Made by a program: the position numbers and the translations under genes
DNA from: a phage
Direction: 5' to 3' (one strand)
Length of the DNA: 64,000 nt
Sequence record: PV636258.1
The notes under the pieces: generated by a model
What the model was told of the DNA's origin: nothing
The model's database searches: none
What the model saw: only the letters and a program-made list of their open reading frames with translations
Shown: in pieces, positions 11,770 to 61,202 of the stretch
Layout: the number at the start of each line of letters is the position of its first letter
Position numbering within the stretch: the stretch's first letter is position 1

Positions 11770-11812
11770 TTTTGCCTCTCATGATGTAGTGAAACTTTTC
11801 AATGTAGGTTAA

Positions 11813-11841
11813 ATGATAGCCGCAAGTTTTATTGAAGTAAA
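11813..11841 (-). promoter_or_regulatory. Sigma70-like early promoter (minus strand: TTTACT-N17-TATCAT)
   Basis: Located right after the hairpin, about 40 nt upstream of the ATG at 11769. Confidence 0.4.
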
Positions 11842-11857
11842 GTTTTATTGAATTAAA

Positions 11858-11875
11858 GCCCAACAAATGTTGGGC
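11858..11875 (-). terminator. Stem-loop terminator (GCCCAAC/GTTGGGC)
   Basis: 7-bp inverted repeat followed by T-tract on the minus strand. Confidence 0.45.
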
Positions 11876-11886
11876 TTTTACCGATA

Positions 11887-12189
11887 TTATTCAGCAGTGC
11901 GATCAGGTGCTGCGTTAGGATACAGTGACTCATAAAGATCCTGGTATTTGGCGCTGGTCTCGATGGTCTTGGTATAAGTTCCACCAGCGCGATCGGTAAC
12001 GACTTTGCGCAGATCAACGGCTTTGATGCCTGTTTCTTTTGCCAATTCAGCCAGGGCTTCGGTAACAAAGGTCTGTTCAGACTTGATACGGATCTGGGCG
12101 GCACGACAATTTTCTAAAGTCTGCATCATCTTTTGACGCAGTTTTGGATCAGAAGGGAGTTGATAAAAACCAATTTGTTCAACTGACAT
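11887..12189 (-). CDS. Hypothetical protein
   Basis: 100-aa ORF, ATG start. Confidence 0.45.
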   Translation of the reverse strand: MSVEQIGFYQLPSDPKLRQKMMQTLENCRAAQIRIKSEQTFVTEALAELAKETGIKAVDLRKVVTDRAGGTYTKTIETSAKYQDLYESLYPNAAPDRTAE

Positions 12190-12201
12190 AATATATCCTC
12201 A

Positions 12202-12534
12202 TTAATGACGAGAACCGAGTGGACCGATACTAGTTCCCAAACGGCGCAGGAAGAAATAAACGATACTGTGAAAACCAAACTCAGGAATAATATCAACGCC
12301 TTCAACATTGTAATATTCCTGAGTGTTGGTCTGTACTGGCAATGGAAAAGACGGAAGATCAAGCTGAACCAATTCACCTGGTTCGCAATGTATCTTGACA
12401 TTCTTACCCCAATGCCGACGATTCTTATAAAATTCTAGAGTCTGCTCTGTAGTGAGTTTGAGACTGGTTTCTCCAGACTGGCACACCTGTTGTGCCGCCC
12501 GAATCAGGTCAGCTATAAATGCAACATCCGACAT
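12202..12534 (-). CDS. Hypothetical protein
   Basis: 110-aa ORF, ATG start verified at 12532-12534. Confidence 0.45.
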   Translation of the reverse strand: MSDVAFIADLIRAAQQVCQSGETSLKLTTEQTLEFYKNRRHWGKNVKIHCEPGELVQLDLPSFPLPVQTNTQEYYNVEGVDIIPEFGFHSIVYFFLRRLGTSIGPLGSRH

Positions 12535-12597
12535 GATGTGCTCCTGGGTTAATATTCAGATCATAGAGATTATACCCTATGATCACCATTATTGAAG

Positions 12598-14022
12598 TTA
12601 ACCGAAATTCCAATTGTTCACGGTCTCGGCTTTCTTGACATCATTTACGTCGCCTGTTTTGTTTAAGTCATGTTTGATATGAACATTCTCAACATAACGG
12701 GCTTCCTCTTCTGTCAGGTCTCGCTTGACTTCATTCCAATCCAAGTCAAACAATATCTGTTTATCTTGATCCATACCGAACAAGAACGATTTGAGTTTCT
12801 GTTTATTGGCATAACGGTTTTTCAAGATAGACGCTCGGGCTTTCTTAACAGCCGCCAGTTCATCAGGGGCATAGAACGCCATGATGAAGTCTGCAACCTT
12901 CGGAATACCGATAGCATCTGCCAGGTCGCTAATATCACCATCAGTCGCCGATTGTTTTTCACGGTTAAATTGCATACCTGTCCATACAGGGCAATCAAAT
13001 TCAAATCCAAGCGCACGGAATTCACGCGCCACCGACGTATAATACACGTTGGTGTTCTGCATTAAATGGGCAGGAAGGCGAGAAGACGCTGATTCACCCA
13101 AGTAGTCTATAATAATGACGTCCGGCGTAATTCCCGTGGATGTCGCATAATCAAGGATATCGCGGCGATATAGTCCTGTATGCCCAGCGCCTGAAGGATA
13201 TTCCTTGATAACAATATCACCCTTCATGGAACCGTCTTGACGAGTTCGCAACTTTTGTATCGTGGCGACATATTCATGTCGTGAGAGCTTCTCTAAGGAC
13301 TCGAAGTCCCTGCGCATCATACGGGCATCAAGGCGGTGACGCCAGACGTTCTCAGCCACTTCTAGGGTGAATACGAATACGTTCAACCCTTGCTCGGAGT
13401 AACCAGCAGCCAAATCAATCAGAGTTGTTGTCTTACCCGCATTAATTGCACCCGTCACGATGTTCAGCGTTTTCTTACCAACACCACCACGAGTCGCTTT
13501 GTTGAATATCTCTACAGCGAAAGGAATCTTCGCTTCATTAGAGTTCATGTGGTCGTATTGTTGTTCAGCCATTTCCCAATAGATATGGCCAAGATAAGAA
13601 TCAAAACTTATCGCCAACGCCTCTTGTAGGAGAGTTGGAATCGTGTTCATCTCATCTTTACGTTTCTCATCACCATAGATGTTGACGGCGTGTTTGATCG
13701 CATTATGAACAGCTTTCTGCCGCGCCCAACTTTCTGTTTCTTTTACAAGCCATTCCTGATGGAATGTGTTGTCATTGATATTCTCAAGAGCAGAAATAGC
13801 TTGTTCAAATACGTGTTCGTTGAGCGAAGTCTTTTCCAGCATAATAGACAACGCTTCAACCGAAGGACGAGCATTATATTCGCAAGTGTAATGGTCAATG
13901 AGACCGAATATAATTTTCTCGCCTTCGTTATCGAAATAATCGGCTTTCAAATACGGCTGGATCTTTCTTTGATATTCTTCGTTATAGATTAATTGGGAAA
14001 GCACGACAGATTCGAGTAACAT
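12598..14022 (-). CDS. 41: Replicative DNA helicase (DnaB-like, T4 gp41-like)
   Basis: Walker A GAINAGKTTTL and DnaB-family C-terminal ATPase architecture; ATG is the third codon of the track ORF (TTG at 14028). Confidence 0.8.
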   Translation of the reverse strand: MLLESVVLSQLIYNEEYQRKIQPYLKADYFDNEGEKIIFGLIDHYTCEYNARPSVEALSIMLEKTSLNEHVFEQAISALENINDNTFHQEWLVKETESWARQKAVHNAIKHAVNIYGDEKRKDEMNTIPTLLQEALAISFDSYLGHIYWEMAEQQYDHMNSNEAKIPFAVEIFNKATRGGVGKKTLNIVTGAINAGKTTTLIDLAAGYSEQGLNVFVFTLEVAENVWRHRLDARMMRRDFESLEKLSRHEYVATIQKLRTRQDGSMKGDIVIKEYPSGAGHTGLYRRDILDYATSTGITPDVIIIDYLGESASSRLPAHLMQNTNVYYTSVAREFRALGFEFDCPVWTGMQFNREKQSATDGDISDLADAIGIPKVADFIMAFYAPDELAAVKKARASILKNRYANKQKLKSFLFGMDQDKQILFDLDWNEVKRDLTEEEARYVENVHIKHDLNKTGDVNDVKKAETVNNWNFG

Positions 14023-14028
14023 TGGCAA

Positions 14029-14358
14029 CTACCCCACCAAAATTTTGTTGTAATCCTGAGCATTTTGCTGTATCAGATCAACTAAGATATCCCCAGACAC
14101 CACAGTGAACAAGTCATTTTCTTTCAAATTAACAAATAACAAACGCCATGGTTTCTTCAATATATCTGTTGTAAAGGATAACCGAGGCTCTCCATTATCT
14201 AAATGGACACCCACTTTCCCTATACGAAATTGAACGCCACGGAATTTGCCTTCCGTTATTTCGATTATTGCTAACTGATCAGAACCAGGGTCGATGATTT
14301 TGTAATTAACGGGGGAGTCTCCTCCCCCTGCAATATTACTCGGTTGTTTTGATGACAT
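14029..14358 (-). CDS. Hypothetical protein (occupies the gene-40 position between uvsX and 41)
   Basis: 109-aa ORF overlapping the uvsX stop; assignment by synteny only. Confidence 0.4.
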   Translation of the reverse strand: MSSKQPSNIAGGGDSPVNYKIIDPGSDQLAIIEITEGKFRGVQFRIGKVGVHLDNGEPRLSFTTDILKKPWRLLFVNLKENDLFTVVSGDILVDLIQQNAQDYNKILVG

Positions 14359-15421
14359 TATCGAGGCGCTCCAGCATATCTGCAGGCATAACCGAACTCT
14401 GAGAGATACCGAACATGTTGTTCACATCGTCAACAAAGTCTGGGTTTTCCAGCAGCGGATACCAGAAGTCATCCCCCAGCTCTGCCTTACGATATTTCTT
14501 TTCTTTTTCTGGATCAAACCCGCCTTTGGCAGTGCGTTGATACCAAGAACCACTCACCAAATCCACATACCCCAGCATGCGCGCAATTTCTAACATACCG
14601 GACCAACGGTCAATACCGCCTTCATACAACACAGTGACAGGGAACTTGGCTTTTTCACGGACAAAGCGGCCTTTCATAATGTTGACTGTAAACTGCCATC
14701 CCAAAAGGTCTTTGTCTTCTTTAACTTGAGAACGCGTGATGAACCACAATTGGTTAGAAGACAGGAACCCCTGTTTACCGCCTTTGATGTTCGGCTCGGC
14801 GTATTGGTTCCCGATTTCATCATAGTACGAGTTGATCCATACCAAAACGAATTTCTTTTCAGTGACCAACGGGGTGATAACACGCCAAAAACTATTGAGA
14901 GCGCGAGCGCGGGTCATATCTTGTGTGTCTTTGCCCGCGATGGCATCATCAACTTCTTTGGTAGACGGCAACTGGCTGATTGAGTCAATGAATACGATGA
15001 TCTTGTCACCTTTCTGTGCATCGTTCAGAAGCTGTGTCAGCTTGATCTTCGTCTTTTCAACGTTTTCAATCGGCAGATACAAGACACGGTCCATGTCAAT
15101 ACCCATAGATGTCCAGTAGTTTTCATTCGCACCGCCTTCTGAATCCGCGAAGATACAAATTGCATCAGGAAACTTATCCATGTAAGCCTTAACATCCACC
15201 AGCCCAAACATGGTTTTGAATGTACGAGAATCCCCTACCAACTGTTTGATGCCTGATATCAGACCACCATCAATACGACCGGACCAGGCCAAATTCAGAA
15301 TAGGAATACCCGTACTGCAAATAATGTCAGGCTTCAGCGCATCGGTCTTTGACAGCACTTCGGCATTCGGGTCCAGTTTCTTTGCTGTCTTGAGCATGCG
15401 AGCCATCAATGAATCGGCCAT
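14336..15421 (-). CDS. uvsX: RecA-like recombinase UvsX
   Basis: 361 aa; segments PILNLAWSG..GG, DAICIFADSEGG, VFIDSISQL, DMTRARALNSFWR, GGIDRWSGMLE parallel T4 UvsX. Confidence 0.85.
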   Translation of the reverse strand: MADSLMARMLKTAKKLDPNAEVLSKTDALKPDIICSTGIPILNLAWSGRIDGGLISGIKQLVGDSRTFKTMFGLVDVKAYMDKFPDAICIFADSEGGANENYWTSMGIDMDRVLYLPIENVEKTKIKLTQLLNDAQKGDKIIVFIDSISQLPSTKEVDDAIAGKDTQDMTRARALNSFWRVITPLVTEKKFVLVWINSYYDEIGNQYAEPNIKGGKQGFLSSNQLWFITRSQVKEDKDLLGWQFTVNIMKGRFVREKAKFPVTVLYEGGIDRWSGMLEIARMLGYVDLVSGSWYQRTAKGGFDPEKEKKYRKAELGDDFWYPLLENPDFVDDVNNMFGISQSSVMPADMLERLDNVIKTTE

Positions 15422-18746: not shown

Positions 18747-18818
18747 GACATGCTCCAATAAACAAAAGGAGCTGCTATTATAGCAGCCCCTTTATCTATT
18801 GAACGCTTCTGAATTAAA

Positions 18819-19778: not shown

Positions 19779-19845
19779 AATAAAAACCCTTTTGTGTAGT
19801 AACCTTCTTTGGCAGTCTAATGTTCAACTGTGCGTCTGGAACATT

Positions 19846-19874
19846 AATATACTGCCTTTTTAGAAGATGTAAAC
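19846..19874 (-). promoter_or_regulatory. Sigma70-like early promoter (minus: GTTTACA-N16-TATATT)
   Basis: Read directly upstream of the 18819..19778 gene. Confidence 0.35.
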
Positions 19875-19951
19875 CACTTTTTATTGAAAAGTTGGTTAAC
19901 ACTTCTGTGTTAGACAACGGAACGCTGGAACAGCGCGGACTGACGTGAATA

Positions 19952-21003: not shown

Positions 21004-21064
21004 ATCATAACCTCATGTTTATAGAAAGCCGTTCGCGAATTATCACGTAGAACGGCTTTTAGAA

Positions 21065-21789: not shown

Positions 21790-21823
21790 TCAACAGATAT
21801 ATTATTTAAATGGAGTCCTCATC

Positions 21824-23896: not shown

Positions 23897-23925
23897 ATTA
23901 TACTGCGTTTTGCTATTGAGTTAAC
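23897..23925 (-). promoter_or_regulatory. Sigma70-like promoter upstream of gene 32 (minus: GTTAAC-N17-TATAAT)
   Basis: Read directly; a weak hairpin and AT-rich leader lie between promoter and start. Confidence 0.3.
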
Positions 23926-25537: not shown

Positions 25538-25574
25538 AACGAAGTTTCATTGTGTTATGGGTATTTAGACCGGA

Positions 25575-27585: not shown

Positions 27586-27921
27586 TTCTTCGCTTACCTG
27601 TATTACCGTTTAAGAAAGGATTGTTTAACCCGAAATTGCTATATCACCATTGTTCCTGATATGAATGTTGTGTAAATCTGGTTTGAATTTGTTTTGAAAC
27701 AAAAATAATGCTTTTCTACGCATGTTCTGAGGTGTACAGTATTTTCCTCGCCTTTATGCCTCCATGGCATTGGAATGGGACTGCCTGTCAAGGCGGTGTT
27801 ACGAGCTTCAGCGAGTAGGAACGAAAAGAACAAAGGTTGAACGGAAGCAGAGCTTCCTATAATATATTATTCGACAGATTTCAAATCCCCGCCATAAATA
27901 TCACATGATTCTAATTGACTA

Positions 27922-30332: not shown

Positions 30333-30794
30333 TCATGGCACCAACGTAATCACAATCATGTTGAGTACCGTATCAACCGCGACACCAGAATCTTCTTCAT
30401 GGATAGTTGATGCACGTAAATGAATGTCAGAAATATAATTGTCTATATGCATCGATGTCAAATAAGGGCGGTGCTGATACACAGGACGGTTGACCTGAAC
30501 ATATTCACGCAGAATGCTAAATGAAAAGTCTTCACATTGAGTGGTGTCAATGCGCAAAAATCTTTGAGCATGGCAGGTCTTTAACTCGGTCACTTTCCCC
30601 AAATAATGGAGGTCTCCGGATGAACCGATACGGAACATCACGTCTACTTCAGATTTGAAAATTTCGCGTTCAATAAGGGTCGCTGGTGCCCAACAAACTT
30701 CTTCCTTGTCTTCTGGGAATAACGTATCGATCACTTCAGGCAATTGGATGTAACCGAAGTTGTGACGAGGGTTGGTCAGTAATTTGTTAGACAT
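30333..30794 (-). CDS. Hypothetical protein
   Basis: 153-aa ORF, ATG start. Confidence 0.4.
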   Translation of the reverse strand: MSNKLLTNPRHNFGYIQLPEVIDTLFPEDKEEVCWAPATLIEREIFKSEVDVMFRIGSSGDLHYLGKVTELKTCHAQRFLRIDTTQCEDFSFSILREYVQVNRPVYQHRPYLTSMHIDNYISDIHLRASTIHEEDSGVAVDTVLNMIVITLVP

Positions 30795-31029
30795 TTTGTG
30801 CCCCTATTACGTGCTCCGAGGCTTGTTCATAAGCTGTACGGAGTTCAAGATAAGAATCGGCTAACAGAGGAGATTTTTCATTGCTTCGGTTCATGATTAT
30901 TTGGTGGTTAACGACAGCACGGCGTAATCTGAGTTCTGCCACCCAGAATGCTTTTTGTTTGGCGTGTCCTGGACGGGCGCGTAGGTCGTGATAATGCATA
31001 GAAGCATGATATATTTCAGAGTTGGTCAT
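30787..31029 (-). CDS. Hypothetical protein
   Basis: 80-aa ORF, ATG start, downstream of early promoter. Confidence 0.35.
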   Translation of the reverse strand: MTNSEIYHASMHYHDLRARPGHAKQKAFWVAELRLRRAVVNHQIIMNRSNEKSPLLADSYLELRTAYEQASEHVIGAQNV

Positions 31030-31079
31030 GATGTAGTACCCGCTTTCAATTTGTGGCGTTGGCCAATGAATTACTGGGA

Positions 31080-31108
31080 AGTATAAGCGCAGGATTTATA
31101 GAAGTAAA
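31080..31108 (-). promoter_or_regulatory. Sigma70-like early promoter (minus: TTTACT-N17-TATACT)
   Basis: -35 overlaps the 3' arm/T-tract of the preceding hairpin. Confidence 0.4.
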
Positions 31109-31125
31109 GCCCCTCGATGAGGGGC
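31109..31125 (-). terminator. Stem-loop (GCCCCTC/GAGGGGC)
   Basis: 7-bp inverted repeat read directly. Confidence 0.45.
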
Positions 31126-31133
31126 TGGTCGGG

Positions 31134-31520
31134 TTACTTGATGAAGAGTACCAGAGGCAGGTTTGTGCCCTTGTCTACCACGTACAGAGCGTCATCGCCC
31201 TTCTTGAACATCAGCTGGTCGTTCTCGTACATCAGCTGAGCTTTACGGGCGTCGTTTTGGAAATCTTGGTACAGTTCTGGTTCTTCAGATAACAGTTCCG
31301 GGTCGATCAGGTGCACTTCTTTAGATCGCAACTCTTCCTTGGTCAGCGCCGCCCCGTTACGCAGGGCATCACGCAGGGCACGCAGGATAGAGCGCGGGTA
31401 TCTCTCCCCGTGGACGTTAAACGCAAAGGGGACTTGTTTAAGGAACGCTCTGGACTTCGCCAGGCCTTGGATAGGGAAAGAGATGGTGGCTTCTAATACG
31501 GCTGGTGTGTTCAGATACAT
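31134..31520 (-). CDS. Hypothetical protein
   Basis: 128-aa ORF, ATG start. Confidence 0.4.
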   Translation of the reverse strand: MYLNTPAVLEATISFPIQGLAKSRAFLKQVPFAFNVHGERYPRSILRALRDALRNGAALTKEELRSKEVHLIDPELLSEEPELYQDFQNDARKAQLMYENDQLMFKKGDDALYVVDKGTNLPLVLFIK

Positions 31521-31568
31521 GATATAGTCCTTCTGGTCAAATGTGGCGTTGTTGCCGTGACCTAGAAT

Positions 31569-31596
31569 ACTATAAACCAGGTTTTTGAAAAGTAAA
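31569..31596 (-). promoter_or_regulatory. Sigma70-like early promoter (minus: TTTACT-N16-TATAGT)
   Basis: Immediately follows the hairpin. Confidence 0.4.
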
Positions 31597-31613
31597 GCCC
31601 CTGGGTTAGGGGC
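31595..31613 (-). terminator. Stem-loop (AGCCCCT/AGGGGCT)
   Basis: 7-bp inverted repeat read directly. Confidence 0.45.
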
Positions 31614-31622
31614 TTTGAAAGA

Positions 31623-35307: not shown

Positions 35308-35391
35308 AGCGATCCTCGGTTTGTGTTTATGCAGGCTGTTATTATACACCGCCTCCATGGATTGAAGGCGGCGGGGAAGTTCGTGTGGTAT

Positions 35392-37133: not shown

Positions 37134-37200
37134 AAGAAAATACCTCCGCAATGTATGCGAAGGTATTTAAAGTGAAAGTCGAACTTGAGGAACTGCTGGG

Positions 37201-37536
37201 TCACATCTGAGGCAACAAGGCCGCTATTTTCTCGACCTTTTGGCGTAGATGGATATACGCTTCTGAAGCCGATATGCCACGTCCTTCTAATGAATCCCGC
37301 CCGATGATTTTCACCGACCAGAGTTTCTCATACTGGTGGTAAGTCATCAAAAAAGATCCACGACACATTTTGATGTCTGCGTCCTCTATGTTTCTGAGTA
37401 CTTTCCAGTCCGCCTGGCCCAAAGAAATTCTGAGTTCATACAGAGCGAGCCTTGACAATTCCAAGTTGCTCTTAGGACTTCCTTCTGGGAAGCCTGACTC
37501 GGTTATGACCAAAGCCTCTTGTTTTGTCGGTTTCAT
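37201..37536 (-). CDS. Hypothetical protein
   Basis: 111-aa ORF, ATG start. Confidence 0.4.
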   Translation of the reverse strand: MKPTKQEALVITESGFPEGSPKSNLELSRLALYELRISLGQADWKVLRNIEDADIKMCRGSFLMTYHQYEKLWSVKIIGRDSLEGRGISASEAYIHLRQKVEKIAALLPQM

Positions 37537-37776: not shown

Positions 37777-38265
37777 TTAAGCCAATTTGTTCACCAGAGT
37801 TTCTACTGCGTCGGCGCTCAGTTTACCCATTTTGACATACTGGGATTTCGCTTCACCGCCAGCGGCTTTCACGATATCACTGTTGTCATAACCCTTTTTC
37901 GGGAATACCATCACGGAGAATGTTCCGTTGTTCAGCGGGTTCAGCTGAATACGACCTTTACCGACTACGATGGTGCCGTAAGTTTCGGTATTCGCTTCAA
38001 CAACGTGGATGTCATGGCCCAGGTCTTTCAGCATGCCAACTTTGTCAGCAGTCTTGGCAACTACGGCTTTGTCTACGACAACCTGCTCTACCAGGGTGAA
38101 GCCGTTGGTTGCTTTCACTTTGCCGTTCAGCAGATTCATGAAGGAAGTTTTGCCACCAGTGAATCCAGCTGCCTGAGCGATGCGGAACATCTCAACTTTT
38201 GCAACTTCGGTGTTCAGCTCAAAAGAGATGGTGCCGTTGGTGATCAGAGTTTTGGTAGTAGCCAT
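37777..38265 (-). CDS. Hypothetical protein, likely abundant early product
   Basis: 163 aa from the ATG at 38265 with GAGGAA SD; strong promoter with AT-rich upstream element; the track start further upstream is implausible. Confidence 0.5.
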   Translation of the reverse strand: MATTKTLITNGTISFELNTEVAKVEMFRIAQAAGFTGGKTSFMNLLNGKVKATNGFTLVEQVVVDKAVVAKTADKVGMLKDLGHDIHVVEANTETYGTIVVGKGRIQLNPLNNGTFSVMVFPKKGYDNSDIVKAAGGEAKSQYVKMGKLSADAVETLVNKLA

Positions 38266-38342
38266 GATGTAATTCCTCATAATGTAGTTGGGTCGTTTCA
38301 CTTTTCATTCGGCGGTGTGTTGTGTACCGCCCTATGTGAACT

Positions 38343-38371
38343 ATAATAGTGCATCATTATTGAAGAGTAAA
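38343..38371 (-). promoter_or_regulatory. Sigma70-like early promoter (minus: TTTACT-N17-TATTAT) with AT-rich upstream element
   Basis: Read directly; about 40 nt of A/T-rich sequence upstream of -35. Confidence 0.45.
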
Positions 38372-38415
38372 GTCTTTTTCAATAAATTTTTAAATTATTT
38401 TTGAAGTATTTTAAA

Positions 38416-38436
38416 AGGCCTCATAGAACGAGGCCT
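38416..38436 (-). terminator. Stem-loop (AGGCCTC/GAGGCCT)
   Basis: 7-bp inverted repeat followed by T-tract on the minus strand. Confidence 0.45.
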
Positions 38437-39735: not shown

Positions 39736-40007
39736 TTACCCCACCCGGTCCGGAAAAGGATAGATTTATATTCTTCTACCATGTTCTGGTCATAATGCGT
39801 AAGACGAGAATATGCTTTGGCTTCATAACTGTCAGCCCCAAGTTCAGTCGCCGCCATGGCCGCTTTCATGTTCAATGTGTTTTCATATCTGGATTCCATA
39901 CCATGGGTTTCCAAATATTCTTTCGCCTGTACAAATCGGCGCTCACTCGCAAACAAGAAGTCATAATTTATTTCTGAAAATTCTTTGTTGTATGCTGCTA
40001 ATGACAT
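39732..40007 (-). CDS. Hypothetical protein
   Basis: ATG at 40007 with AGAGGTG SD; the longer track ORF overlaps the upstream gene. Confidence 0.4.
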   Translation of the reverse strand: MSLAAYNKEFSEINYDFLFASERRFVQAKEYLETHGMESRYENTLNMKAAMAATELGADSYEAKAYSRLTHYDQNMVEEYKSILFRTGWGK

Positions 40008-40017
40008 AGTACACCTC

Positions 40018-40635
40018 TTAAATCGCGGGCCTCTGGAACACTTCTGACACATTATAATCCACCCCGCGACTTTGAGCTATGCAAAGCTGTCTCCATGCAC
40101 CATATAGAATATTCTGCTCTGCGACTTGATTGCGTTCAAAGTGGGCGAATTCTTCCAGCATCTGTTTGTACCCCAATAGATAAGGAGGGATATCTGTAGG
40201 TCTTCTTTTGCCCAAAGATTTAGACAAATATGATGCATAATGTTCCGGTGAAGACAAAGATGAATATTGCATATTTGGAACGTGAACGGGCTTCAAAGAT
40301 TTTCTAGGGGTGAAGTACAACAAACCCCACTTGGGAGGGAGGTCTTCAATTTTAATAACATCTGCTGGGCAAACATAGAAACGATATGCTCCCATGCCTA
40401 TGGAAGGATTCATGCGATGAGGTTTCTTTTTGTCTGTCAGGAAGTCGGCGCGGGAGACTTTAACTTCCATTAATATAGAACAACCCCCAGGTCTGAACCC
40501 GATGGCGTCAGGGGATTCACGATTATCGAATGAATTTGGTTCTACGAACACAGCACCACAATTCATTTGTTTGTGTAGAAATTTTGCAGCGATTTGACAA
40601 CCTTCTGAGTGAGAAGGTATAAAGATTTTGCCCAT
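40018..40635 (-). CDS. Putative PD-(D/E)xK-fold nuclease
   Basis: 205 aa; candidate motif PDAIGF...ILMEVKV (D...E.K). Confidence 0.35.
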   Translation of the reverse strand: MGKIFIPSHSEGCQIAAKFLHKQMNCGAVFVEPNSFDNRESPDAIGFRPGGCSILMEVKVSRADFLTDKKKPHRMNPSIGMGAYRFYVCPADVIKIEDLPPKWGLLYFTPRKSLKPVHVPNMQYSSLSSPEHYASYLSKSLGKRRPTDIPPYLLGYKQMLEEFAHFERNQVAEQNILYGAWRQLCIAQSRGVDYNVSEVFQRPAI

Positions 40636-40698
40636 TGTTATCTGTATCCTATTGATGACGAATGGGCAAAATTATAACCTGACGATGATCCTATTGAG

Positions 40699-41052: not shown

Positions 41053-41101
41053 GATTGTTTCCTCAGAAAAAGAAATCCCCCTGTATTTAGGGGGATTGTC
41101 A

Positions 41102-41344
41102 TCAAGGCTTGATCAAAGTCAGCTTGACGGTTTCACCCGTGCTGGTGTTCGTCAGGGTCATAATGTTCTGTGCGTTCACAGACTTCACTTTCCCCTGATG
41201 TTTATCCCCGTTGCGATCATAGTAATCAATCAAATCGCCTTTGTTAGGGCGGCCAACGTCGGTGATGTCATACATGCCCTGCTGTCCAAGACGGCGATGG
41301 TCAACCTTTGCTTCCTTCAAGAGGAAGTCCTGGAATCCTTTCAT
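41102..41344 (-). CDS. Hypothetical protein
   Basis: 80-aa ORF, ATG start. Confidence 0.4.
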   Translation of the reverse strand: MKGFQDFLLKEAKVDHRRLGQQGMYDITDVGRPNKGDLIDYYDRNGDKHQGKVKSVNAQNIMTLTNTSTGETVKLTLIKP

Positions 41345-41952: not shown

Positions 41953-41970
41953 TAGCCCCCGAAGGGGCTA
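41953..41970 (-). terminator. Stem-loop (TAGCCCC-CGAA-GGGGCTA)
   Basis: 7-bp perfect inverted repeat downstream of the 909-aa gene. Confidence 0.45.
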
Positions 41971-44772: not shown

Positions 44773-45048
44773 TTAACGACGAAACGGGCGAGACGCGTTT
44801 TGGCGATTGTTGTAATTCTTATCAAATTGTGCCAACGCCGCCGGACTCCATTCGCGTTCCCATTCTTTGTCAACTTCGGTTTGGTTGGCAGGTTCAATCA
44901 TTTCAGCAGTAGGAAAATCGCGTTTCATAATTTCACGCAATTGTTCAGAAGGGGCGGTTTGGGCGTGGACTAATTCTTCACCGTCGTAAACTTTGGCCAT
45001 CAACCATTTGCTGCCGTAACGGATATATGCGTCGAGGATGATTTTCAT
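44773..45048 (-). CDS. Hypothetical protein
   Basis: ATG at 45048 with AGGAAC SD; the track start at 45069 is TTG. Confidence 0.4.
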   Translation of the reverse strand: MKIILDAYIRYGSKWLMAKVYDGEELVHAQTAPSEQLREIMKRDFPTAEMIEPANQTEVDKEWEREWSPAALAQFDKNYNNRQNASRPFRR

Positions 45049-45096
45049 AATGTAGTTCCTGCTTTTCAAGTTGGTGTCGTACTGCTTATGTTTAGA

Positions 45097-45124
45097 ATTA
45101 TACGTGGGTTATTGAAGAAGTAAA
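45097..45124 (-). promoter_or_regulatory. Sigma70-like early promoter (minus: TTTACT-N16-TATAAT)
   Basis: Consensus -10 TATAAT; -35 abuts the hairpin. Confidence 0.45.
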
Positions 45125-45140
45125 GGGGCTTTTGCCCCTT
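45123..45140 (-). terminator. Stem-loop (AAGGGGC-TTTT-GCCCCTT)
   Basis: 7-bp inverted repeat with flanking T-tract. Confidence 0.45.
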
Positions 45141-45152
45141 TTATTGAATAAT

Positions 45153-46408: not shown

Positions 46409-46474
46409 GATGGCGTTCCTTATGTGTTTGTCGACTTGCAGCTCGCTGGAGCCTCCTGACAGGGTTAAAAGATA

Positions 46475-46500
46475 AAGGGCACGTGATATTTAGTGCCCTT
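46475..46500 (-). terminator. Stem-loop (AAGGGCAC/GTGCCCTT)
   Basis: 8-bp inverted repeat with 10-nt loop. Confidence 0.4.
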
Positions 46501-46504
46501 CACC

Positions 46505-50859: not shown

Positions 50860-51637
50860 TATTTTGTTGCTCCCGTTCTAATGCTCGTTTCTTTGCTTCT
50901 TCCCAATCTGGTTCCATAGAACATATTTCGTCTTCCAGATTGAATTGAGTAGAGCCGAAGTCATAGTCTGAATTATCTTCGGCGTCGGCGGTAATGGTAT
51001 TTTCACTCTTTGTGAGACATTGAAGTATACCGCGTGGAATTTTCTTATTCTTTTCCTCTTCTTTGATGGCGATTTGCTTTTGGCGTTCCTTTTCGCGCTG
51101 GGCTTCTTTCTTAGTTTCAAAATTTCCGATACGCTCACGAAAGTCCATTGTTATACCAGTGCTGTCTACGAACGTCTGTTGCTGGAAGTCTGGGTCATCT
51201 GATAATGCAGCGAAACCACCTGCTTCTTCAAATGAACGCAACTTGATATAATTGTGTTCTTCTTCACTGGTGAGTTTCTTGGCGAATGAACGGTCGGCGC
51301 ACATCGTTACCCAAGAGAAGAAATTGATTTTTCCTTTCTTGCCGATATGACTGACGTCAAATGTATGGAGGTAACGAAGAATGTTAACAACGGCCTCACT
51401 GACCATGTCTTCGCGGTATGGATAATCACGATAGTTGTAGCGCATACTCATGTTCTTAATAATCATCTGAACATTCATGGCCACATAATTGGGGATTCTT
51501 GGTAGGGGTGTTCCTTCGGCCAAAGCCTTTTTGCGAGCCGGAATCCAATCTCTCAATATTCCAACAACACGGTCATTATCTTCGTCTGTGAAATATTTGG
51601 TGACGTTATCACCCCTGTCTACAAAATTCATACCCAT
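50846..51637 (-). CDS. 55: gp55-like late-transcription sigma factor with C-terminal extension (tentative)
   Basis: Blocks ILRDW and EDMVSEAVVNILRYLHTFD...FFSWVTMCADRSFAKK parallel T4 gp55 as recalled; position after 46/47 as in T4; GAGGA SD before the ATG at 51637. Confidence 0.5.
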   Translation of the reverse strand: MGMNFVDRGDNVTKYFTDEDNDRVVGILRDWIPARKKALAEGTPLPRIPNYVAMNVQMIIKNMSMRYNYRDYPYREDMVSEAVVNILRYLHTFDVSHIGKKGKINFFSWVTMCADRSFAKKLTSEEEHNYIKLRSFEEAGGFAALSDDPDFQQQTFVDSTGITMDFRERIGNFETKKEAQREKERQKQIAIKEEEKNKKIPRGILQCLTKSENTITADAEDNSDYDFGSTQFNLEDEICSMEPDWEEAKKRALEREQQNNGDC

Positions 51638-54780: not shown

Positions 54781-54839
54781 TCTCTTTTAGCCTTGCGCCG
54801 CTGCACTGCAGACATGCGCTGGGCCGACGCCTGGTGTGA

Positions 54840-55118: not shown

Positions 55119-55201
55119 TCGGATTACTCCAGTTGGTTGTTTACGATGTTTCACTACAAGAGGACTACAGCTTACCTAACAAATATTATTGAATAAAGCG
55201 T

Positions 55202-55993: not shown

Positions 55994-56202
55994 CAATGTA
56001 CTCCTTCAAAAATGTAAATATAAGCACCCAATGTGAGTGCAGTTATTGTAACCGAAGAAATCAGCAGTAGGAAAGTTACTCTCACCCGTTTGCGCCAACG
56101 TTTACTTCGGTAGATTTTAGTCTCTTTCAAGTATTTGAAAAAGAAAAATAAAATGAATGTTGAAATTACGAATATGAACAGATAACGGATTAACCCGATC
56201 AT
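55993..56202 (-). CDS. Small two-TM membrane protein coupled to the lipoprotein gene
   Basis: 69 aa from the ATG at 56202; two hydrophobic helices separated by a K/R-rich loop; stop overlaps the next start. Confidence 0.45.
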   Translation of the reverse strand: MIGLIRYLFIFVISTFILFFFFKYLKETKIYRSKRWRKRVRVTFLLLISSVTITALTLGAYIYIFEGVH

Positions 56203-56519
56203 ATTTCCCACCCTGTGCTACGCAGATGATCAAAATAATCGTTGAGTTCGTCAATATCTTCGATATCAACCCAACGATCATCCAGTCCCATATCATTTAG
56301 ATCTTCTTCAGTCAGATCATGTTGATAAATCTGAATGCCCGAAGCATTACAATAATCCGGCTTGATATTGTTGTTGAACTGGAACAAATCATAATCAGCC
56401 AGAGTATTCTTCAGGCGCTGCGCTTCTTCAAATGTTGGAACCTCAACATGAAAAGCGATCCCAGGAACCTGGGGAATATGCCAAACACGAAATTTAAGTT
56501 CAAATGGTTTATTCGACAT
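56199..56519 (-). CDS. Hypothetical acidic protein
   Basis: 106-aa ORF, ATG start. Confidence 0.4.
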   Translation of the reverse strand: MSNKPFELKFRVWHIPQVPGIAFHVEVPTFEEAQRLKNTLADYDLFQFNNNIKPDYCNASGIQIYQHDLTEEDLNDMGLDDRWVDIEDIDELNDYFDHLRSTGWEI

Positions 56520-56796
56520 GTTGTTCTTCCTGCGCCAATATTACTTTCATTTGCTCACGAGTAATGATGGTTTCAACAAGATTCTCGTCAATCATCATTT
56601 CGTTTAACAGTTCACAACCCAGCACGTGTGGTCGCGCCATATACGGTATGGCGTTGAGTTTTTCTTCTATGTCAAGAACGCGCTTGACAGTCAGACCCAT
56701 AGAAGAAAAGGGAACAGGATAAAAGAATGAAATGATCTGATTATCCATCCCGTTTGAAAATCTTACCAACAATACATCACACCATACGCCGGACAT
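56509..56796 (-). CDS. Hypothetical protein
   Basis: ATG at 56796 with GGAGGTG SD; the track N-terminus upstream is implausible. Confidence 0.35.
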   Translation of the reverse strand: MSGVWCDVLLVRFSNGMDNQIISFFYPVPFSSMGLTVKRVLDIEEKLNAIPYMARPHVLGCELLNEMMIDENLVETIITREQMKVILAQEEQHVE

Positions 56797-56797
56797 A

Positions 56798-57466: not shown

Positions 57467-57487
57467 AATATAGATCTCTCAAATAAA

Positions 57488-57508
57488 GGCGGTTTAATAA
57501 TAACCGCC
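57488..57508 (-). terminator. Stem-loop (GGCGGTT/AACCGCC)
   Basis: 7-bp inverted repeat with AT-rich loop. Confidence 0.4.
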
Positions 57509-57522
57509 CTTGTATTATAGAA

Positions 57523-58314: not shown

Positions 58315-58364
58315 CACGAAGTATTTCCTTTCAGTTCAATGGAAGTTAAATTTTAACCTGAAAA

Positions 58365-58685
58365 TTATCTTTGATTTCCAACGAAATTAGTTGCAATTTC
58401 ACGGCACATAGTCAGATCTTTAATAGTCTGTTTGCTGTTGTCTGCGGCAGATTCCATCATAGATAAATCAAGCGCATTCTCTATCTGGTCCACACTATAG
58501 AGATCAAGGCGTTTCAATTCACCTTCATAATCAGATAAAAGAATTGATGTATCCTTATCATCCGGATGGAATTGTTGATATGTAGACAACCAAGCAGCAC
58601 AAATATTCAACTTACTGGCCGGAGCTGCCAATACTTGGGAAGACATGAAAGTGCACAGGAATAACAATAAGATTTTGATTTTCAT
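58365..58685 (-). CDS. Small secreted/periplasmic protein
   Basis: 106 aa with N-terminal signal peptide (MKIKILLLFLCTFMSSQVLA); start overlaps the upstream stop. Confidence 0.45.
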   Translation of the reverse strand: MKIKILLLFLCTFMSSQVLAAPASKLNICAAWLSTYQQFHPDDKDTSILLSDYEGELKRLDLYSVDQIENALDLSMMESAADNSKQTIKDLTMCREIATNFVGNQR

Positions 58686-59371
58686 CTTTCGTTCTCCTTC
58701 ATCATATTATCACAGTCAATTCTTGTTTGCTTGAGTTCACGGGAAAGCCTTGGATCATCAAGATTGACAGACAAATTAGTGGAAAGATCTTTCAAACCAT
58801 TCTGAACACGGTCTTCATAATAATGATCATTTTCCACCAGCCATGCTCTCAGGCCAAGGGCGCGAGTCCGCCATTCCTTTTTCAAACGTCGATCAGATTC
58901 TTGATCAGCACTGTATTCAAATACTCGGATACATTGGTTGCCATCATTGATGAGATCCAGCTGACGTCGGCCAACCTGCACACCTTTTTGTAATGCTGGA
59001 GAAGGAAGAGAACGGCACTGTCTTACGGTCATTCGTCCTTGTGTGACCATACGACCAGTCATGATGAGATCGCCAGCCTCCATGCCTCCTCGGTTAAATT
59101 CTTCGTCGTTCATATATCCTTTCAGGTTGAATGCGCCTTGCTTATATCGATTAAACTCGATACCAGCATTTACAACGGCATCTGTGACATTACCTGTGGC
59201 CCAGAGTTCAGCAAAGTTCTCTATGGAACCAGTTTTGTCTATAGCCACGGCTTGGGAGAACCCAGCACAGTAGGAAAGATCAGACCACAGTTTTTCACCT
59301 GTGGAATTCAGCTTGGCTGTGGCAGGAAGTGCCAGACCAGCCAGCACAACCGCGATGATTAAACGTTTCAT
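58682..59371 (-). CDS. Secreted/periplasmic protein
   Basis: From the ATG at 59371 with AAGGAG SD: signal peptide MKRLIIAVVLAGLALPATA; 229 aa. Confidence 0.5.
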   Translation of the reverse strand: MKRLIIAVVLAGLALPATAKLNSTGEKLWSDLSYCAGFSQAVAIDKTGSIENFAELWATGNVTDAVVNAGIEFNRYKQGAFNLKGYMNDEEFNRGGMEAGDLIMTGRMVTQGRMTVRQCRSLPSPALQKGVQVGRRQLDLINDGNQCIRVFEYSADQESDRRLKKEWRTRALGLRAWLVENDHYYEDRVQNGLKDLSTNLSVNLDDPRLSRELKQTRIDCDNMMKENER

Positions 59372-59399
59372 GGTGATTCTCCTTATTTCATTGGATAAA

Positions 59400-59429
59400 A
59401 TGATAGGGCTGTCACCATGTTGAGTAAAG
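59400..59429 (-). promoter_or_regulatory. Sigma70-like early promoter (minus: TTTACT-N18-TATCAT)
   Basis: Read directly upstream of the secreted-protein gene. Confidence 0.35.
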
Positions 59430-59455
59430 GGTTTCAATAAACTATCGTATTCAGA

Positions 59456-59905
59456 TCAGTATCGACTATCACTGACCGTTCTGTATCGCACACCCTGAAA
59501 CTGTTTAGCGAGTTTAACAAATTCCATCGCTGGCAAATCAACTTTGTAGACCTTCATGCGCTGTTTGCCGTCCATGTTCAACGCAGCGACAAATCGGTGA
59601 GAACCGTCAACAACGTAATTGTCAGAAGACACCCAAACTCGACCCATGGGCTTCTTATTTCTGATCTGCTTCATAATCTTCCAGACCTTCATTTTATTGA
59701 TTTCGTTCTGGGTAAGACGAAGCATTTTGATAGGCACTTGCGCAGCATCTATAGACACGCCGTTGTCTTCAAGATATTTGTGAAAATCTTCTTGTTTGTC
59801 GGCATCGATTTGCGGCATCGAAGAACGAGAAAGCCCGAGGTTCCCAACAGGAATCCTCAGGCCATTTATGATATTCATCCAGTCAATAAAGGATGTAAGG
59901 AACAT
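59456..59905 (-). CDS. ParB-like nuclease domain protein (tentative)
   Basis: 149 aa; block VVDGSHRFVAAL resembles the ParB/Srx DG.HR..A motif. Confidence 0.45.
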   Translation of the reverse strand: MFLTSFIDWMNIINGLRIPVGNLGLSRSSMPQIDADKQEDFHKYLEDNGVSIDAAQVPIKMLRLTQNEINKMKVWKIMKQIRNKKPMGRVWVSSDNYVVDGSHRFVAALNMDGKQRMKVYKVDLPAMEFVKLAKQFQGVRYRTVSDSRY

Positions 59906-59942
59906 GACACACCTCGGGATATAGGGTTATCCCTTAGTTAGT

Positions 59943-60221
59943 TCATTCGGACTTAAACAGCAATTCGCGAACAGAAGTCCCAACGATATTCTGGGTGTTC
60001 AACAAACGAGTTAAATCATCCATGTCATATGCTGAATTGGTGATATGACGCAAGATAATCGCCAACATTCCCTCCAGCGCTCTCCGATTGTTATTCTCTT
60101 CAATGTCAAACTTAATTTCAACAAATCGAGATAGCATTCTGGATTGAGCATTTGTTTCGTTGGTTTTGCTCTGTATAATATCTTTGATTTCCGAACGAGC
60201 AATACTTCTTTGATCTGTCAT
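59943..60221 (-). CDS. Hypothetical protein
   Basis: 92-aa ORF, GAAGGAAC SD. Confidence 0.4.
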   Translation of the reverse strand: MTDQRSIARSEIKDIIQSKTNETNAQSRMLSRFVEIKFDIEENNNRRALEGMLAIILRHITNSAYDMDDLTRLLNTQNIVGTSVRELLFKSE

Positions 60222-60245
60222 GATATAGTTCCTTCATTTCAAATG

Positions 60246-60267
60246 GGCGGGGCAAAGATACCCCGCC
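60246..60267 (-). terminator. GC-rich stem-loop (GGCGGGG/CCCCGCC)
   Basis: 7-bp inverted repeat between two minus-strand genes. Confidence 0.4.
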
Positions 60268-60273
60268 GTGGGT

Positions 60274-60780
60274 TTATAGGGTAATAAGTGATACGGTAAA
60301 AACCATCGTCCCATCTGTTGCCATTTTTCTTGAAACTGGGAAGACGCGAGGCTGGCAGAATATCCATTCTTTCTCCATGGACGCCAAGTCCAGCATATCC
60401 ATTTCTGATTCATCGTCTTTGTTCACAAATTTTTCTAGAGAACCAAAGACATTAAGCCCCTCTGGGAGTCCGTTTCGATGTTTGTAACAAATGCGAGCAA
60501 CAGCTCTGGTTCCATACGATTTAGAAAATTGTTTGGCCACATGCTTCAATTCACTGAAGCTGAGACAAGAATCCCATGTCTGGAACATGTCGCCTCGTTC
60601 AAACATCATCTCTAAACGCACAACGTCCTCTTTAGGCAACCCACGATAAAGTGTGGTCATCTGCGGTTCGCGAAATTCTTGCACCAGATCACGGACGACA
60701 GGAGAAACAGTGCCAGGGCGCATAATATGGGACTTATCATGGACGAGGTAAAATAAATCTTGAATTTGTTGATCGGTCAT
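60274..60780 (-). CDS. Possible mono-ADP-ribosyltransferase (R-S-E type, ModA/ModB-like), tentative
   Basis: From the ATG at 60780 (168 aa): ordered candidate triad TLYRGL (Arg), CLSFSEL (S.S), MEKEW (E.E) with ART-like spacing. Confidence 0.35.
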   Translation of the reverse strand: MTDQQIQDLFYLVHDKSHIMRPGTVSPVVRDLVQEFREPQMTTLYRGLPKEDVVRLEMMFERGDMFQTWDSCLSFSELKHVAKQFSKSYGTRAVARICYKHRNGLPEGLNVFGSLEKFVNKDDESEMDMLDLASMEKEWIFCQPRVFPVSRKMATDGTMVFTVSLITL

Positions 60781-60806
60781 GGTGTAGTTCCTGCATTTCA
60801 AATCGA

Positions 60807-60824
60807 CGGGGTAATCATACCCCG
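60807..60824 (-). terminator. GC-rich stem-loop (CGGGGTA/TACCCCG)
   Basis: 7-bp inverted repeat; overlaps the implausible 5' extension of the track ORF. Confidence 0.4.
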
Positions 60825-60839
60825 CCCTAAGTTATAGAA

Positions 60840-61079
60840 TTAACTGACGTGCTTCAGAAGAGCGAAGAGGATCACGGCCTTGGCTTTCACCTTGCCGACG
60901 ATGCCTGTCTCAACATCGACTTCTTCCGCAACCCACTCTTTACCCTTCTTGCTAATGATGACGTCGCGGCGCTGGACGTATACCTCTTTCGTCGCATACA
61001 CACGACGGAACCCTTTAGCGCGGAGCAAGCCCCAATTACGGTCAATCTCCACTGAAGTTTCTACCATTTTGTTCTTCAT
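60840..61079 (-). CDS. Hypothetical protein
   Basis: 79-aa ORF, ATG start, own promoter. Confidence 0.4.
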   Translation of the reverse strand: MKNKMVETSVEIDRNWGLLRAKGFRRVYATKEVYVQRRDVIISKKGKEWVAEEVDVETGIVGKVKAKAVILFALLKHVS

Positions 61080-61130
61080 GATATAATCTTACCTTTCAAC
61101 CTGGTGAACCCATCGTTCGCCAGTTATTGA

Positions 61131-61159
61131 ATAATACGCATTTGCCTTATAGAAGTAAA
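61131..61159 (-). promoter_or_regulatory. Sigma70-like early promoter (minus: GTTTAC-N17-TATTAT)
   Basis: Read directly. Confidence 0.4.
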
Positions 61160-61174
61160 CCCCTAAAAGTAAAA

Positions 61175-61196
61175 ATCCCCAACGTTTGTTGGGGAT
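61175..61196 (-). terminator. Stem-loop (ATCCCCAAC/GTTGGGGAT)
   Basis: 9-bp perfect inverted repeat followed by T-tract on the minus strand. Confidence 0.5.
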
Positions 61197-61202
61197 CTTC
61201 AG

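Follow-up and report, generated by a model that had tools for sequence, protein, structure and literature searches.

We analyzed a window of 64,000 nucleotides (nt) of phage DNA (sequence record PV636258.1) for a predicted promoter element, here called class A, that recurs in the gaps between minus-strand genes, usually together with a GC-rich hairpin. The window comes from a Kuttervirus (ViI-like, family Ackermannviridae). A 10-kb piece of it is 99.1% identical to Salmonella phages PM10 and Chennai, and the same piece also matches approximately 270 other Ackermannviridae records. The window corresponds to approximately 55.3 to 119.3 kb of Chennai (MN953776.1), and we transferred gene starts from the Chennai annotation to window coordinates. 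According to this annotation, minus-strand genes follow one another in a long series that covers replication, nucleotide metabolism, and many small proteins whose function is unknown; the series is broken by a few plus-strand baseplate genes. Phages of the ViI-like group are widely used in biocontrol, diagnostics, and tail-spike engineering; their transcription program is almost unstudied.

An initial annotation of this DNA had described, at seven intergenic sites, a GC-rich hairpin followed by GTTTAC(T), a spacer, and a TATAAT-like hexamer. We found all seven elements where they had been placed, on the minus strand, in intergenic DNA, and in the orientation of the next gene. A regular-expression scan of the window added an eighth, also intergenic and on the minus strand, at 19.87 kb. 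The class A consensus is (C/G)TTTACT, 17 nt, TAT(N)AT. The pattern [CG]TTTAC-N16-19-TANNNT has 10 minus-strand and 2 plus-strand matches in the window, and eight of the minus-strand matches are intergenic. The narrower pattern TTTACT-N15-18-TANNNT has eight matches, representing seven sites, every one of them minus-strand and intergenic; the expectation for both strands is 1.76 ± 1.39 matches, and none of 100 shuffles reached eight. Across the Chennai genome, 11 of 18 regular-expression matches lie in non-coding DNA, which makes up 7.6% of the genome.

The proposed GTTTAC form of the -35 hexamer held in part: TTTAC is present at all eight sites, but the preceding base is C at six of them and G only at 61.16 and 19.87 kb. 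A T follows TTTAC at seven of the eight sites, and TTTACT agrees with the sigma-70 hexamer TTGACA at four of six positions. If the sigma-70 hexamer is taken as TTTACT, the spacer is 16 to 17 nt, with 17 nt at most sites. We also examined 41 sequences gathered by a scan that demanded TTTAC and TA...T; among these, TTTAC is invariant (41/41), the preceding base is C in 30, the spacer from TTTACT is 17 nt in 32, 16 nt in 8, and 15 nt in 1, and position 3 of the -10 hexamer is T in 39. The -10 hexamer has the form TA...T at all class A sites, as the scan demanded. The recurrent spacer sequence TC(T)TCAATAA noted earlier was recovered as TTCAATAA at 11.83, 38.36, and 45.11 kb and as TTCTATAA at 31.10 and 61.15 kb. 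In addition, an A/T-rich box, TTCAATAAAA or its inverse TTATTGAAA, lies no more than 32 nt upstream of the -35 element at five of the eight sites; it is missing where a hairpin abuts the -35 element. A generic sigma-70 scan was rejected as a detector, as it recovers the class A sites without separating them from background. Overall, reading the element, with its TTTACT-17-TATNAT layout, as a promoter behind a terminator is supported, in that this reading fits all the sequence tests that we ran. The coordinates of these sites and of the other features discussed below are collected in Table 1.

Table 1. Predicted promoters, hairpins, leader copies, and accessory modules of the window. Parts of minus-strand features are given in the 5' to 3' direction of that strand; dG is the folding free energy.
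Feature	Coordinates	Strand	Elements
g91 (10576..11769), class A cassette	11780..11878	-	-35 CTTTAC 11842..11837; -10 TATCAT 11818..11813; hairpin 11878..11855, dG -15.5, two compensatory pairs; TTCAATAA upstream 11852..11845 and in spacer 11836..11829; leader motif 11802..11780; orthologues in 3HA11, P01, SW16-7
g102, class A promoter	19779..19888	-	-35 GTTTAC 19874..19869; -10 TATATT 19851..19846; TTCAATAA upstream box 19888..19881; upstream hairpin weak; kept in 5/5 relatives; orthologue is Porf069 in phage AG3
g121 (30787..31029), class A cassette	31027..31126	-	-35 CTTTAC 31109..31104, overlapping hairpin 3' arm; -10 TATACT 31085..31080; hairpin 31126..31108, dG -14.6, passes strict terminator scan, compensatory pairs; leader motif 31049..31027; orthologues in five genomes
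g122 (31134..31520), class A cassette	31518..31616	-	-35 CTTTAC 31597..31592, overlapping hairpin 3' arm; -10 TATAGT 31574..31569; hairpin 31616..31594, dG -14.2; leader ..GAAGGACTATATCATG
g130 (37777..38265), class A cassette	38279..38436	-	-35 CTTTAC 38372..38367; -10 TATTAT 38348..38343; hairpin 38436..38416, dG -13.6, 43 nt upstream of -35; inverted pair TTATTGAA 38385..38378 and TTCAATAA 38364..38357 around -35; leader hairpin GGGCGG..CCGCC, then ..AACTACATTATG
g139 (44773..45048), class A cassette	45046..45148	-	-35 CTTTAC 45125..45120, overlapping hairpin 3' arm; -10 TATAAT 45102..45097; hairpin 45141..45122, dG -13.6; TTCAATAA 45148..45141 and in spacer 45116..45109; leader motif 45069..45046
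g158 (58682..59371), class A promoter without hairpin	59372..59440	-	-35 CTTTAC 59429..59424; -10 TATCAT 59405..59400; TTATTGAA 59440..59433; ordinary AAGGAG ribosome-binding site; kept in four relatives
g162 (60840..61079), class A cassette	61077..61201	-	-35 GTTTAC 61160..61155; -10 TATTAT 61136..61131; hairpin 61201..61170, dG -19.8; TTCAATAA 61131..61124; leader TTGAAAGGTAAGATTATATCATG
Leader motif copies	11780..11802, 31027..31049, 45046..45069, 60219..60242, 60778..60801	-	
Accessory module with g122	31127..31583	-	two copies of hairpin and CTTTACTT at its ends
Accessory module with g161 (ADP-ribosyltransferase-like)	60270..60768	-	direct repeat of about 60 nt (hairpin and leader) at its ends
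g86, class B	8378..8423	-	hairpin just upstream 8423..8404, dG -14.1; TTCAATAA-N12-TATAAT 8403..8378
g87 (DNA ligase), class B	9858..9908	-	TTCTATTG-N13-TATAAT 9908..9882; -10 in hairpin 9898..9858, dG -21.6
g93, class B	12559..12596	-	TTCAATAA-N14-TATAAT 12596..12569; -10 in loop of hairpin 12584..12559, dG -13.5; compensatory stem changes between genera
g101, class B	18757..18803	-	TTCAATAG-N13-TATAAT 18803..18777; -10 in loop of hairpin 18800..18757, dG -23.6, then TTTTGTTTATT
g104, class B-like	21025..21064	-	TTCTAAAA-N12-GATAAT 21064..21039; -10 in hairpin 21059..21025, dG -17.4
g107 (single-stranded DNA-binding protein), class B	23897..23920	-	CTCAATAG-N10-TATAAT; conserved in 3HA11
g125 (nrdA), class B	35341..35373	-	TTCAATCC-N12-TATAAT 35366..35341; box in loop of hairpin 35373..35347, dG -18.9; kept in four relatives
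g134, class B	40671..40698	-	CTCAATAG-N14-TATAAT
g155, class B	57485..57522	-	TTCTATAA-N12-TATTAT 57522..57497; -10 in loop of hairpin 57511..57485, dG -13.9
g161, class B	60805..60839	-	TTCTATAA-N12-TATGAT 60839..60814; -10 in loop of hairpin 60826..60805, dG -17.0; then leader TTGAAATGCAGGAACTACACCATG
Late-type CTAAATA(C)/TATAAATA sites	41072..41100, 41953..41970, 46471..46504, 25562..25568	-	
Late-type CTAAATA(C)/TATAAATA sites	2360..2370, 21805..21815, 27893..27900	+/-	

The initial annotation had placed a GC-rich hairpin at each site. Folding found a stable one at six of the eight sites; the fold at 59.43 kb (g158) is no better than shuffles (z +0.28), and the hairpin at 19.9 kb is weak. 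The six hairpins have free energies of -13.6 to -19.8 kcal/mol and z-scores of -2.3 to -4.8 against shuffles. They begin 1 to 28 nt past the stop codon of the upstream gene, and their stems lie between an A-run and a T-run (AAAGCCC..GGGCTTT), which is the usual form of an intrinsic terminator. The -35 element, described as often overlapping the 3' arm of the hairpin, does so at 31.11, 31.60, and 45.12 kb only; the hairpins at 11.87, 38.43, and 61.19 kb end 9 to 43 nt upstream of it. Stems show compensatory changes between relatives (e.g., CCCAAC/GTTGGG to CCCAGT/ACTGGG), and Erwinia phage Bue1 has a different stem at the same position. No Rfam family matched anywhere in the window. As a separate observation, the -10 element and predicted start of the g102 promoter, which has no upstream terminator, lie within a 44-nt hairpin at 19812..19855 on the minus strand (GCAGTATATTAATGTTC..GAACATTAGACTGC, dG -13.9).

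We compared the window to the syntenic 50 kb of five relatives: E. coli phage 3HA11 (Kuttervirus, approximately 90% identity), Salmonella phage SW16-7 (Agtrevirus), Dickeya phage phiD3 (Limestonevirus), Klebsiella phage P01 (Taipeivirus), and Bue1 (Nezavisimistyvirus). The class A motif is kept at every orthologous locus within the fetched range, with the exception of g158 in Bue1, where no match to the site was found. When alignments were left unconstrained, identity to the window was 0.98 over xTTTACT and 0.91 over the -10 hexamer, compared to 0.66 in the spacer, 0.61 upstream, and 0.75 downstream.

We consider it likely that the class A elements are host sigma-70 early promoters lying behind intrinsic terminators or attenuators, and that they represent the early class of this ViI-like phage. 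The suggestion that promoters stand behind terminators is consistent with the intergenic and co-oriented placement, the position of hairpins after stop codons, the conserved hexamers, and the covariation in the stems. Sigma-70 dependence, early timing, and efficient termination ("insulation") would follow by analogy with T4 and with the promoter-early stem-loop (PeSL) cassettes of phages RB49 and phi1. Under this model, the host sigma-70 RNA polymerase holoenzyme would read the eight elements right after infection; their consensus layout is an upstream box (TTCAATAAAA/TTATTGAAA), (C/G)TTTACT, a 17-nt spacer often starting TC(T)TCAATAA, and TAT(N)AT, followed by a 30- to 80-nt leader that ends TTGAAAG..AGGAACTAYATYATG. 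At six sites, the promoter lies 0 to 45 nt past a GC-rich stem-loop that has a short U-run and would act as an intrinsic terminator or attenuator. Transcription of each small gene or gene group would therefore start separately. If the hairpin's 3' arm and U-run read GGGGCTTTACTT, the same bases would form both the terminator tail of the RNA and the -35 element of the DNA.

Several points weigh against this interpretation. The -10 hexamers are imperfect, with TATAAT at only one of the eight sites, and a TGn extension (TG at -15/-14) is present at none of the eight. For two of the eight promoters, no hairpin is convincing as a terminator. The U-runs of the hairpins are short and interrupted, consisting of three to five U followed by A or C (UUUACUU, UUUUAAAA, UUUUUACUUUU), and a strict terminator scan (at least 5 T in 8) is passed by only one of the six hairpins, 31126..31108. 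Given these features, termination may be partial; we relied on folding rather than on the strict scan because the scan misses five of the six hairpins, whose T-run is broken by AC. Part of the conservation of the hexamers arises by construction, since orthologues were located by a regular expression that fixes TTTAC and TA...T. The literature searched contained no mapped transcript ends, 5' or 3', for any phage of the Ackermannviridae. Finally, the DNA of ViI-like phages carries modified thymidine, and its recognition by unmodified host polymerase is not a given.

The class A unit is larger than the initial annotation described, reaching the start codon of the next gene through a common leader. 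This leader consists of an optional GGGCGG..CCGCC hairpin, TTGAAA(G), and (A)AGGAACTAYAYYATG up to the start codon. The pattern TTGAA-N4-16-CTAYAYYATG occurs at five sites, compared to 0.02 expected, with near-variants at g122, g130, and g162. The leader TTGAAAG..AGGAACTAYATYATG, together with ribosome-binding site and start codon, is present at g121, g122, g139, g160, g161, and g162. It is kept across genera, and the likeness includes the spacer between ribosome-binding site and ATG, which is normally unconstrained. The leader might act as a translation signal or as a target for the RegB-like nuclease of the phage (g141), or it may reflect nothing more than cassette ancestry. We rejected duplicated genes as the origin of the leaders, given that the downstream proteins are mutually dissimilar; save for g161, all proteins behind the leader belong to PHROG families of unknown function. 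The genes downstream of class A promoters encode small proteins of unknown function, as is typical for early genes. At g91 and g130, the gene has its own ribosome-binding site just 3' of the cassette ATG. The cassette ATG of g91 is out of frame with the start codon that follows it and is a non-functional remnant, while that of g130 is in frame, five codons before the annotated start. A conserved upstream open reading frame (ORF) starting at the g91 leader ATG was considered and rejected: across genera, this ATG is out of frame, in frame, or opens a 2-codon ORF, and it looks like a remnant of the cassette.

Two genes of the window are flanked by copies of this unit. The g122 module is missing from 3HA11, with a 31-nt junction overlap, and from four other relatives; in a three-way alignment, the single 3HA11 cassette corresponds to the left copy upstream and to the right copy downstream. 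The g122 protein occurs in only 22 phage records. The g161 module is likewise missing from 3HA11, with a 61-nt junction overlap and the same pattern in the three-way alignment. Based on these overlaps, g122 and g161 lie between direct repeats of cassette sequence. The neighboring genes g160 and g161 are not paralogues. The g161 product (60274..60780, minus strand, 168 amino acids) matches PHROG 832, "RNA polymerase ADP-ribosylase" (E 8.6e-16), several RefSeq homologues carry this name, and the gene is found in 76 phage records; its YRG, SFS, and EKEW stretches may form an R-S-E motif. The presence of g161 runs counter to a 2011 statement that ViI-like phages have no Alt/ModA homologue. In SW16-7, the g162 cassette is present as a tandem duplicate around an extra ORF. 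Because the promoter-to-ATG unit is common to unrelated genes, it offers short homologies, and recombination at these homologies would have inserted or deleted g122 and g161 as whole genes.

These observations bear on the alternative that we take most seriously, namely that the recurrence mainly reflects the spread of a portable cassette (hairpin, promoter, leader, and ATG) that shuffles genes by recombination, such that promoter and terminator activity are real and the pattern does not come from selection for insulation. We regard this as a real possibility, at somewhat less than even chances, and one that largely complements the main explanation instead of displacing it. The presence or absence of g122 and g161 in close relatives, with junctions in repeated cassette sequence, argues for it, as do the SW16-7 tandem cassette and the ATG remnants at g91 and g130. 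Furthermore, three distant loci have a common promoter and leader before unrelated genes; the promoter and leader of the g139 cassette recur in two class A cassettes that lie beyond the window, at Chennai 24635 and 136292. The idea also fits the published description of PeSL cassettes (PMC2839356). However, only two of the approximately nine indels in the alignment of the window to 3HA11, those at g122 and g161, are bounded by cassettes, and most cassettes occupy the same loci in five genera, which indicates that they are old and stable. In addition, the eight window cassettes are on average only 48% identical to one another, so their likeness is at the level of motifs rather than of recent copying. 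Other differences from 3HA11, identified by blastn chaining, show no junction repeat: g128 (37192..37524) and g133 (39736..40027) are present in the window only, and 3HA11 carries 714 additional nt, including an opposite-strand gene, at the g135|g136 hairpin (window 41064..41105) and 297 additional nt at the g152|g153 gap (window 56198..56206).

The initial annotation covered one of three promoter classes. Oriented k-mer counts over all Chennai intergenic regions revealed enrichment of CTAAATA(C), TTCAATAA, and CTTTACT. The TTCAATAA box has 23 copies in the window, compared to 4.7 expected, and the recurrence within class A spacers belongs to this excess. The box also occurs upstream of the class A -35 element in either orientation, and inverted pairs of it surround the -35 element at g130 and at three promoters of Bue1. 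A second class of sites, class B, combines the box form TTC(A/T)ATA(A/G) with TATAAT after 12 to 14 nt and has no -35 element. There are approximately 17 intergenic class B sites in the whole genome, ten of them in the window, located before the genes for ligase, single-stranded DNA-binding protein, nrdA, and similar functions. The exact form TTCAAT-N14-16-TATAAT has four sites, compared to 0.05 expected. Class B is conserved across genera, and its -10 element is TATAAT at seven of the ten window sites. At six of the ten, the -10 element lies within the loop or stem of a strong hairpin that is followed by a T-run; because of this placement, the same DNA could act as a terminator for incoming transcripts and as a promoter for the next unit. 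By analogy with known phages, class B most likely represents a later promoter class with its box near -30.

The shared box raises a second alternative, namely that class A promoters are not plain sigma-70 promoters and instead require, or are switched by, a phage factor with TTCAATAA as its binding site. We think this improbable. Since the box adjoins the class A -35 element and occupies the place of the -35 element in class B, 12 to 14 nt from TATAAT, one protein could close the early promoters and open the middle ones. The excess of box copies is consistent with such a factor, as are the inverted TTATTGAA..TTCAATAA pairs at g130 and the three Bue1 promoters, the enrichment of the exact class B form, and the conservation of class B across genera before replication and nucleotide-metabolism genes. 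The geometry is that of MotA-dependent promoters of T4, in which, according to a T4 review, the box lies 12 ± 1 nt from a near-perfect -10 element. Counting against the factor, no binding protein was identified. A tblastn search with T4 MotA, a test of low sensitivity, gave no match at E ≤ 10 in these phage genomes, and T4 AsiA gave nothing significant, only a weak match (E 0.1 to 0.8) inside the gp55 gene; the authors of the CBA120 paper likewise found neither. In class A, the distance from box to -10 element varies from 5 to 10 nt and the orientation of the upstream copy varies, and an A/T-rich box upstream of a -35 element could be a plain UP element. The weak AsiA match itself (32 to 33% over 57 amino acids; Chennai 106573..106743, window approximately 51250..51420) recurs at the same place in three genomes, in the gp55-like late sigma gene g147, and is probably due to chance. 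The fuller proposal, in which TTCAATAA is the site of a putative phage-encoded transcription factor that turns class B (middle) promoters on by replacing the -35 contact and turns class A promoters off, would amount to a second, independently evolved early-to-middle switch among T4-related phages; we offer it as a speculative and unlikely idea. The placement of -10 elements in hairpin loops might be part of this putative switch.

A third alternative is that the hairpins are stabilizers of RNA 3' ends or processing signals on read-through transcripts, leaving the genes without insulation. The short, interrupted U-runs and the result of the strict scan would fit this explanation, and the phage encodes a RegB-family endoribonuclease. 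However, the A-run and T-run flanks and the location directly after stop codons speak for termination, and RB49 stem-loops of the same design terminated like rrnB T1 in a reporter assay (PMC2839356), and we judge the processing explanation more doubtful still than a dedicated box-binding factor. The last alternative, that A/T-rich intergenic DNA yields such sites by chance or through its composition, could draw on the generic sigma-70 scan, which matches everywhere (45 to 63 matches per 20 kb, compared to 33 to 39 expected) and gives class A sites only 9 to 10 of 12, but it is contradicted by seven sites against 1.8 expected with 0/100 shuffles, by hexamer conservation in five relatives, and by the location of all sites on the coding strand of the next gene, and its probability is close to nil.

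The third promoter class is marked by CTAAATA(C) and TATAAATA, the most enriched oriented intergenic 7-mers, which occur in 16 regions of the whole genome, compared to 0.9 expected. Given their placement before structural genes, these 7-mers mark the probable gp55-type late promoter. Several of these sites lie in the loop or 3' arm of a hairpin; those at 41100..41072 and 46504..46471 are in hairpin loops. Separately, we noted a conserved non-coding block at 27712..27862 on the plus strand (core 27758..27806). It lies within the 345 nt that separate g116 from the tail-lysozyme gene g117 and is retained in four to five genera, and most relatives have a second copy; in Chennai (MN953776.1), this copy lies at 13866..13914 (L003, minus strand), with a 49-nt core that is 94% identical and inverted. 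The second copy is at approximately the same distance (115 to 165 nt) upstream of another late baseplate gene, and a TAAATA late-promoter-like site follows each copy. The block can form a hairpin, CTGCC..GGCGG, with one compensatory change and with G-U pairs that favor the strand of the downstream gene; covariation is weak overall, and no Rfam family matched the block. The block may encode a small RNA or act in cis as a regulatory leader of baseplate genes. A small ORF in the 27.7- to 27.9-kb block was rejected, as it is not kept in phiD3 or P01.

The class A element belongs to an ordinary kind of phage regulatory signal that earlier work had listed in part; the present analysis defines it as a class and as a portable cassette. 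Nothing here is conceptually new, and the point with some potential is the TTCAATAA box together with class B in a family in which no MotA/AsiA was detected. The early consensus CTTTACT-17-TATNAT with its leader, and the second class TTCAATAA-12/14-TATAAT, provide a basis for the design of 5'-end mapping. A defined early consensus also enables prediction of which genes of unknown function are expressed first and supplies compact promoter and terminator parts for phage engineering. Our search of the literature for the motif strings found nothing relevant, and the 2012 "Viunalikevirus" paper reportedly mentions conserved regulatory sequences.

Previous studies of Ackermannviridae list some of these sites individually. 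Table S2 of the Shigella phage AG3 genome paper independently gives orthologues of some class A sites as sigma-70 early promoters (Porf069, Porf138) and lists terminators at orthologous hairpins (Torf088 "gcccctcattgaggggctttactttt", Torf057, Torf101); the orthologue of the g101 class B site appears there as both Porf067 and Torf069. Unlike our analysis, that search used TTGACA-N15-18-TATAAT, yielded nine sites, one of them (Porf100) in a different register, and defined no CTTTACT class or cassette. The LIMEstone1 paper lists 5 early, 5 middle, and 33 late promoters by similarity to T4. The CBA120 paper states that early promoters were not identifiable by informatics and reports that no homologue of MotA, AsiA, Alt, or ModA was found. 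A 2024 review of Ackermannviridae is silent on promoters and transcription.

The likeness to T4 early promoters proposed in the initial annotation stands: intergenic T4 sites upstream of rIIA.1, motB, motB.2, and srd have the form GTTTAC(T/A)-N17-TATAAT-like. They read tagTTTACT..TGGTATAAT (rIIA.1), tagTTTACA..GAGTATAAT (motB), ttgTTTACT (motB.2), and ttgTTTACA (srd); because the T4 record has no annotated promoters, the comparison rests on these four examples. The T4 review describes early promoters as composed of UP, -35, TGn, and -10 elements. Both systems have an xTTTAC(T/A) -35 element, a 17-nt spacer, a TATAAT-like -10 element, and a position before small genes of unknown function; the A/T-rich upstream DNA of T4 has a counterpart in the box found at five of the eight sites here. 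They differ in the base before TTTAC (C at six of the eight sites here, G in T4), and in that the class A sites have no TGn, weaker -10 hexamers (TATCAT, TATTAT, TATACT, and similar), and TTCAATAA in the spacer; moreover, this phage belongs to the Ackermannviridae and T4 to the Straboviridae. Class B resembles the MotA/AsiA-dependent middle promoters of T4 in having no -35 element, a box 12 to 14 nt upstream of a near-perfect TATAAT, and a location before replication and nucleotide-metabolism genes. However, its box is TTC(A/T)ATA(A/G) rather than (a/t)(a/t)(a/t)TGCTTtA, its -10 element often lies in a hairpin loop, and neither our tblastn searches nor the CBA120 paper detected a MotA/AsiA homologue.

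A close match in design is provided by the PeSL cassettes of RB49 and phi1, for which experiments have tested both the stem-loops and the promoters (Arbiol et al. 2010, PMC2839356). Both kinds of cassette combine a sigma-70-like early promoter and A/T-rich upstream DNA with a GC-rich stem-loop that terminates upstream transcription, or here would do so, and both end in a ribosome-binding site and start codon before genes without known function. The position of the stem-loop varies in both; here, it is upstream of or overlapping the -35 element in class A and around the -10 element or box in class B. The PeSL cassettes belong to a different phage family and number approximately 50 per genome, compared to approximately 10 class A and 17 class B copies here, most of which hold their position from genus to genus and seem not to cluster in hyperplastic regions; the likeness is one of design. 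As with PeSL cassettes, recombination between cassettes could account for indels that distinguish close relatives, here for only two of approximately nine, and these cassette-bounded gene indels take the PeSL concept, in which regulatory cassettes serve as recombination modules, outside the T4 family.

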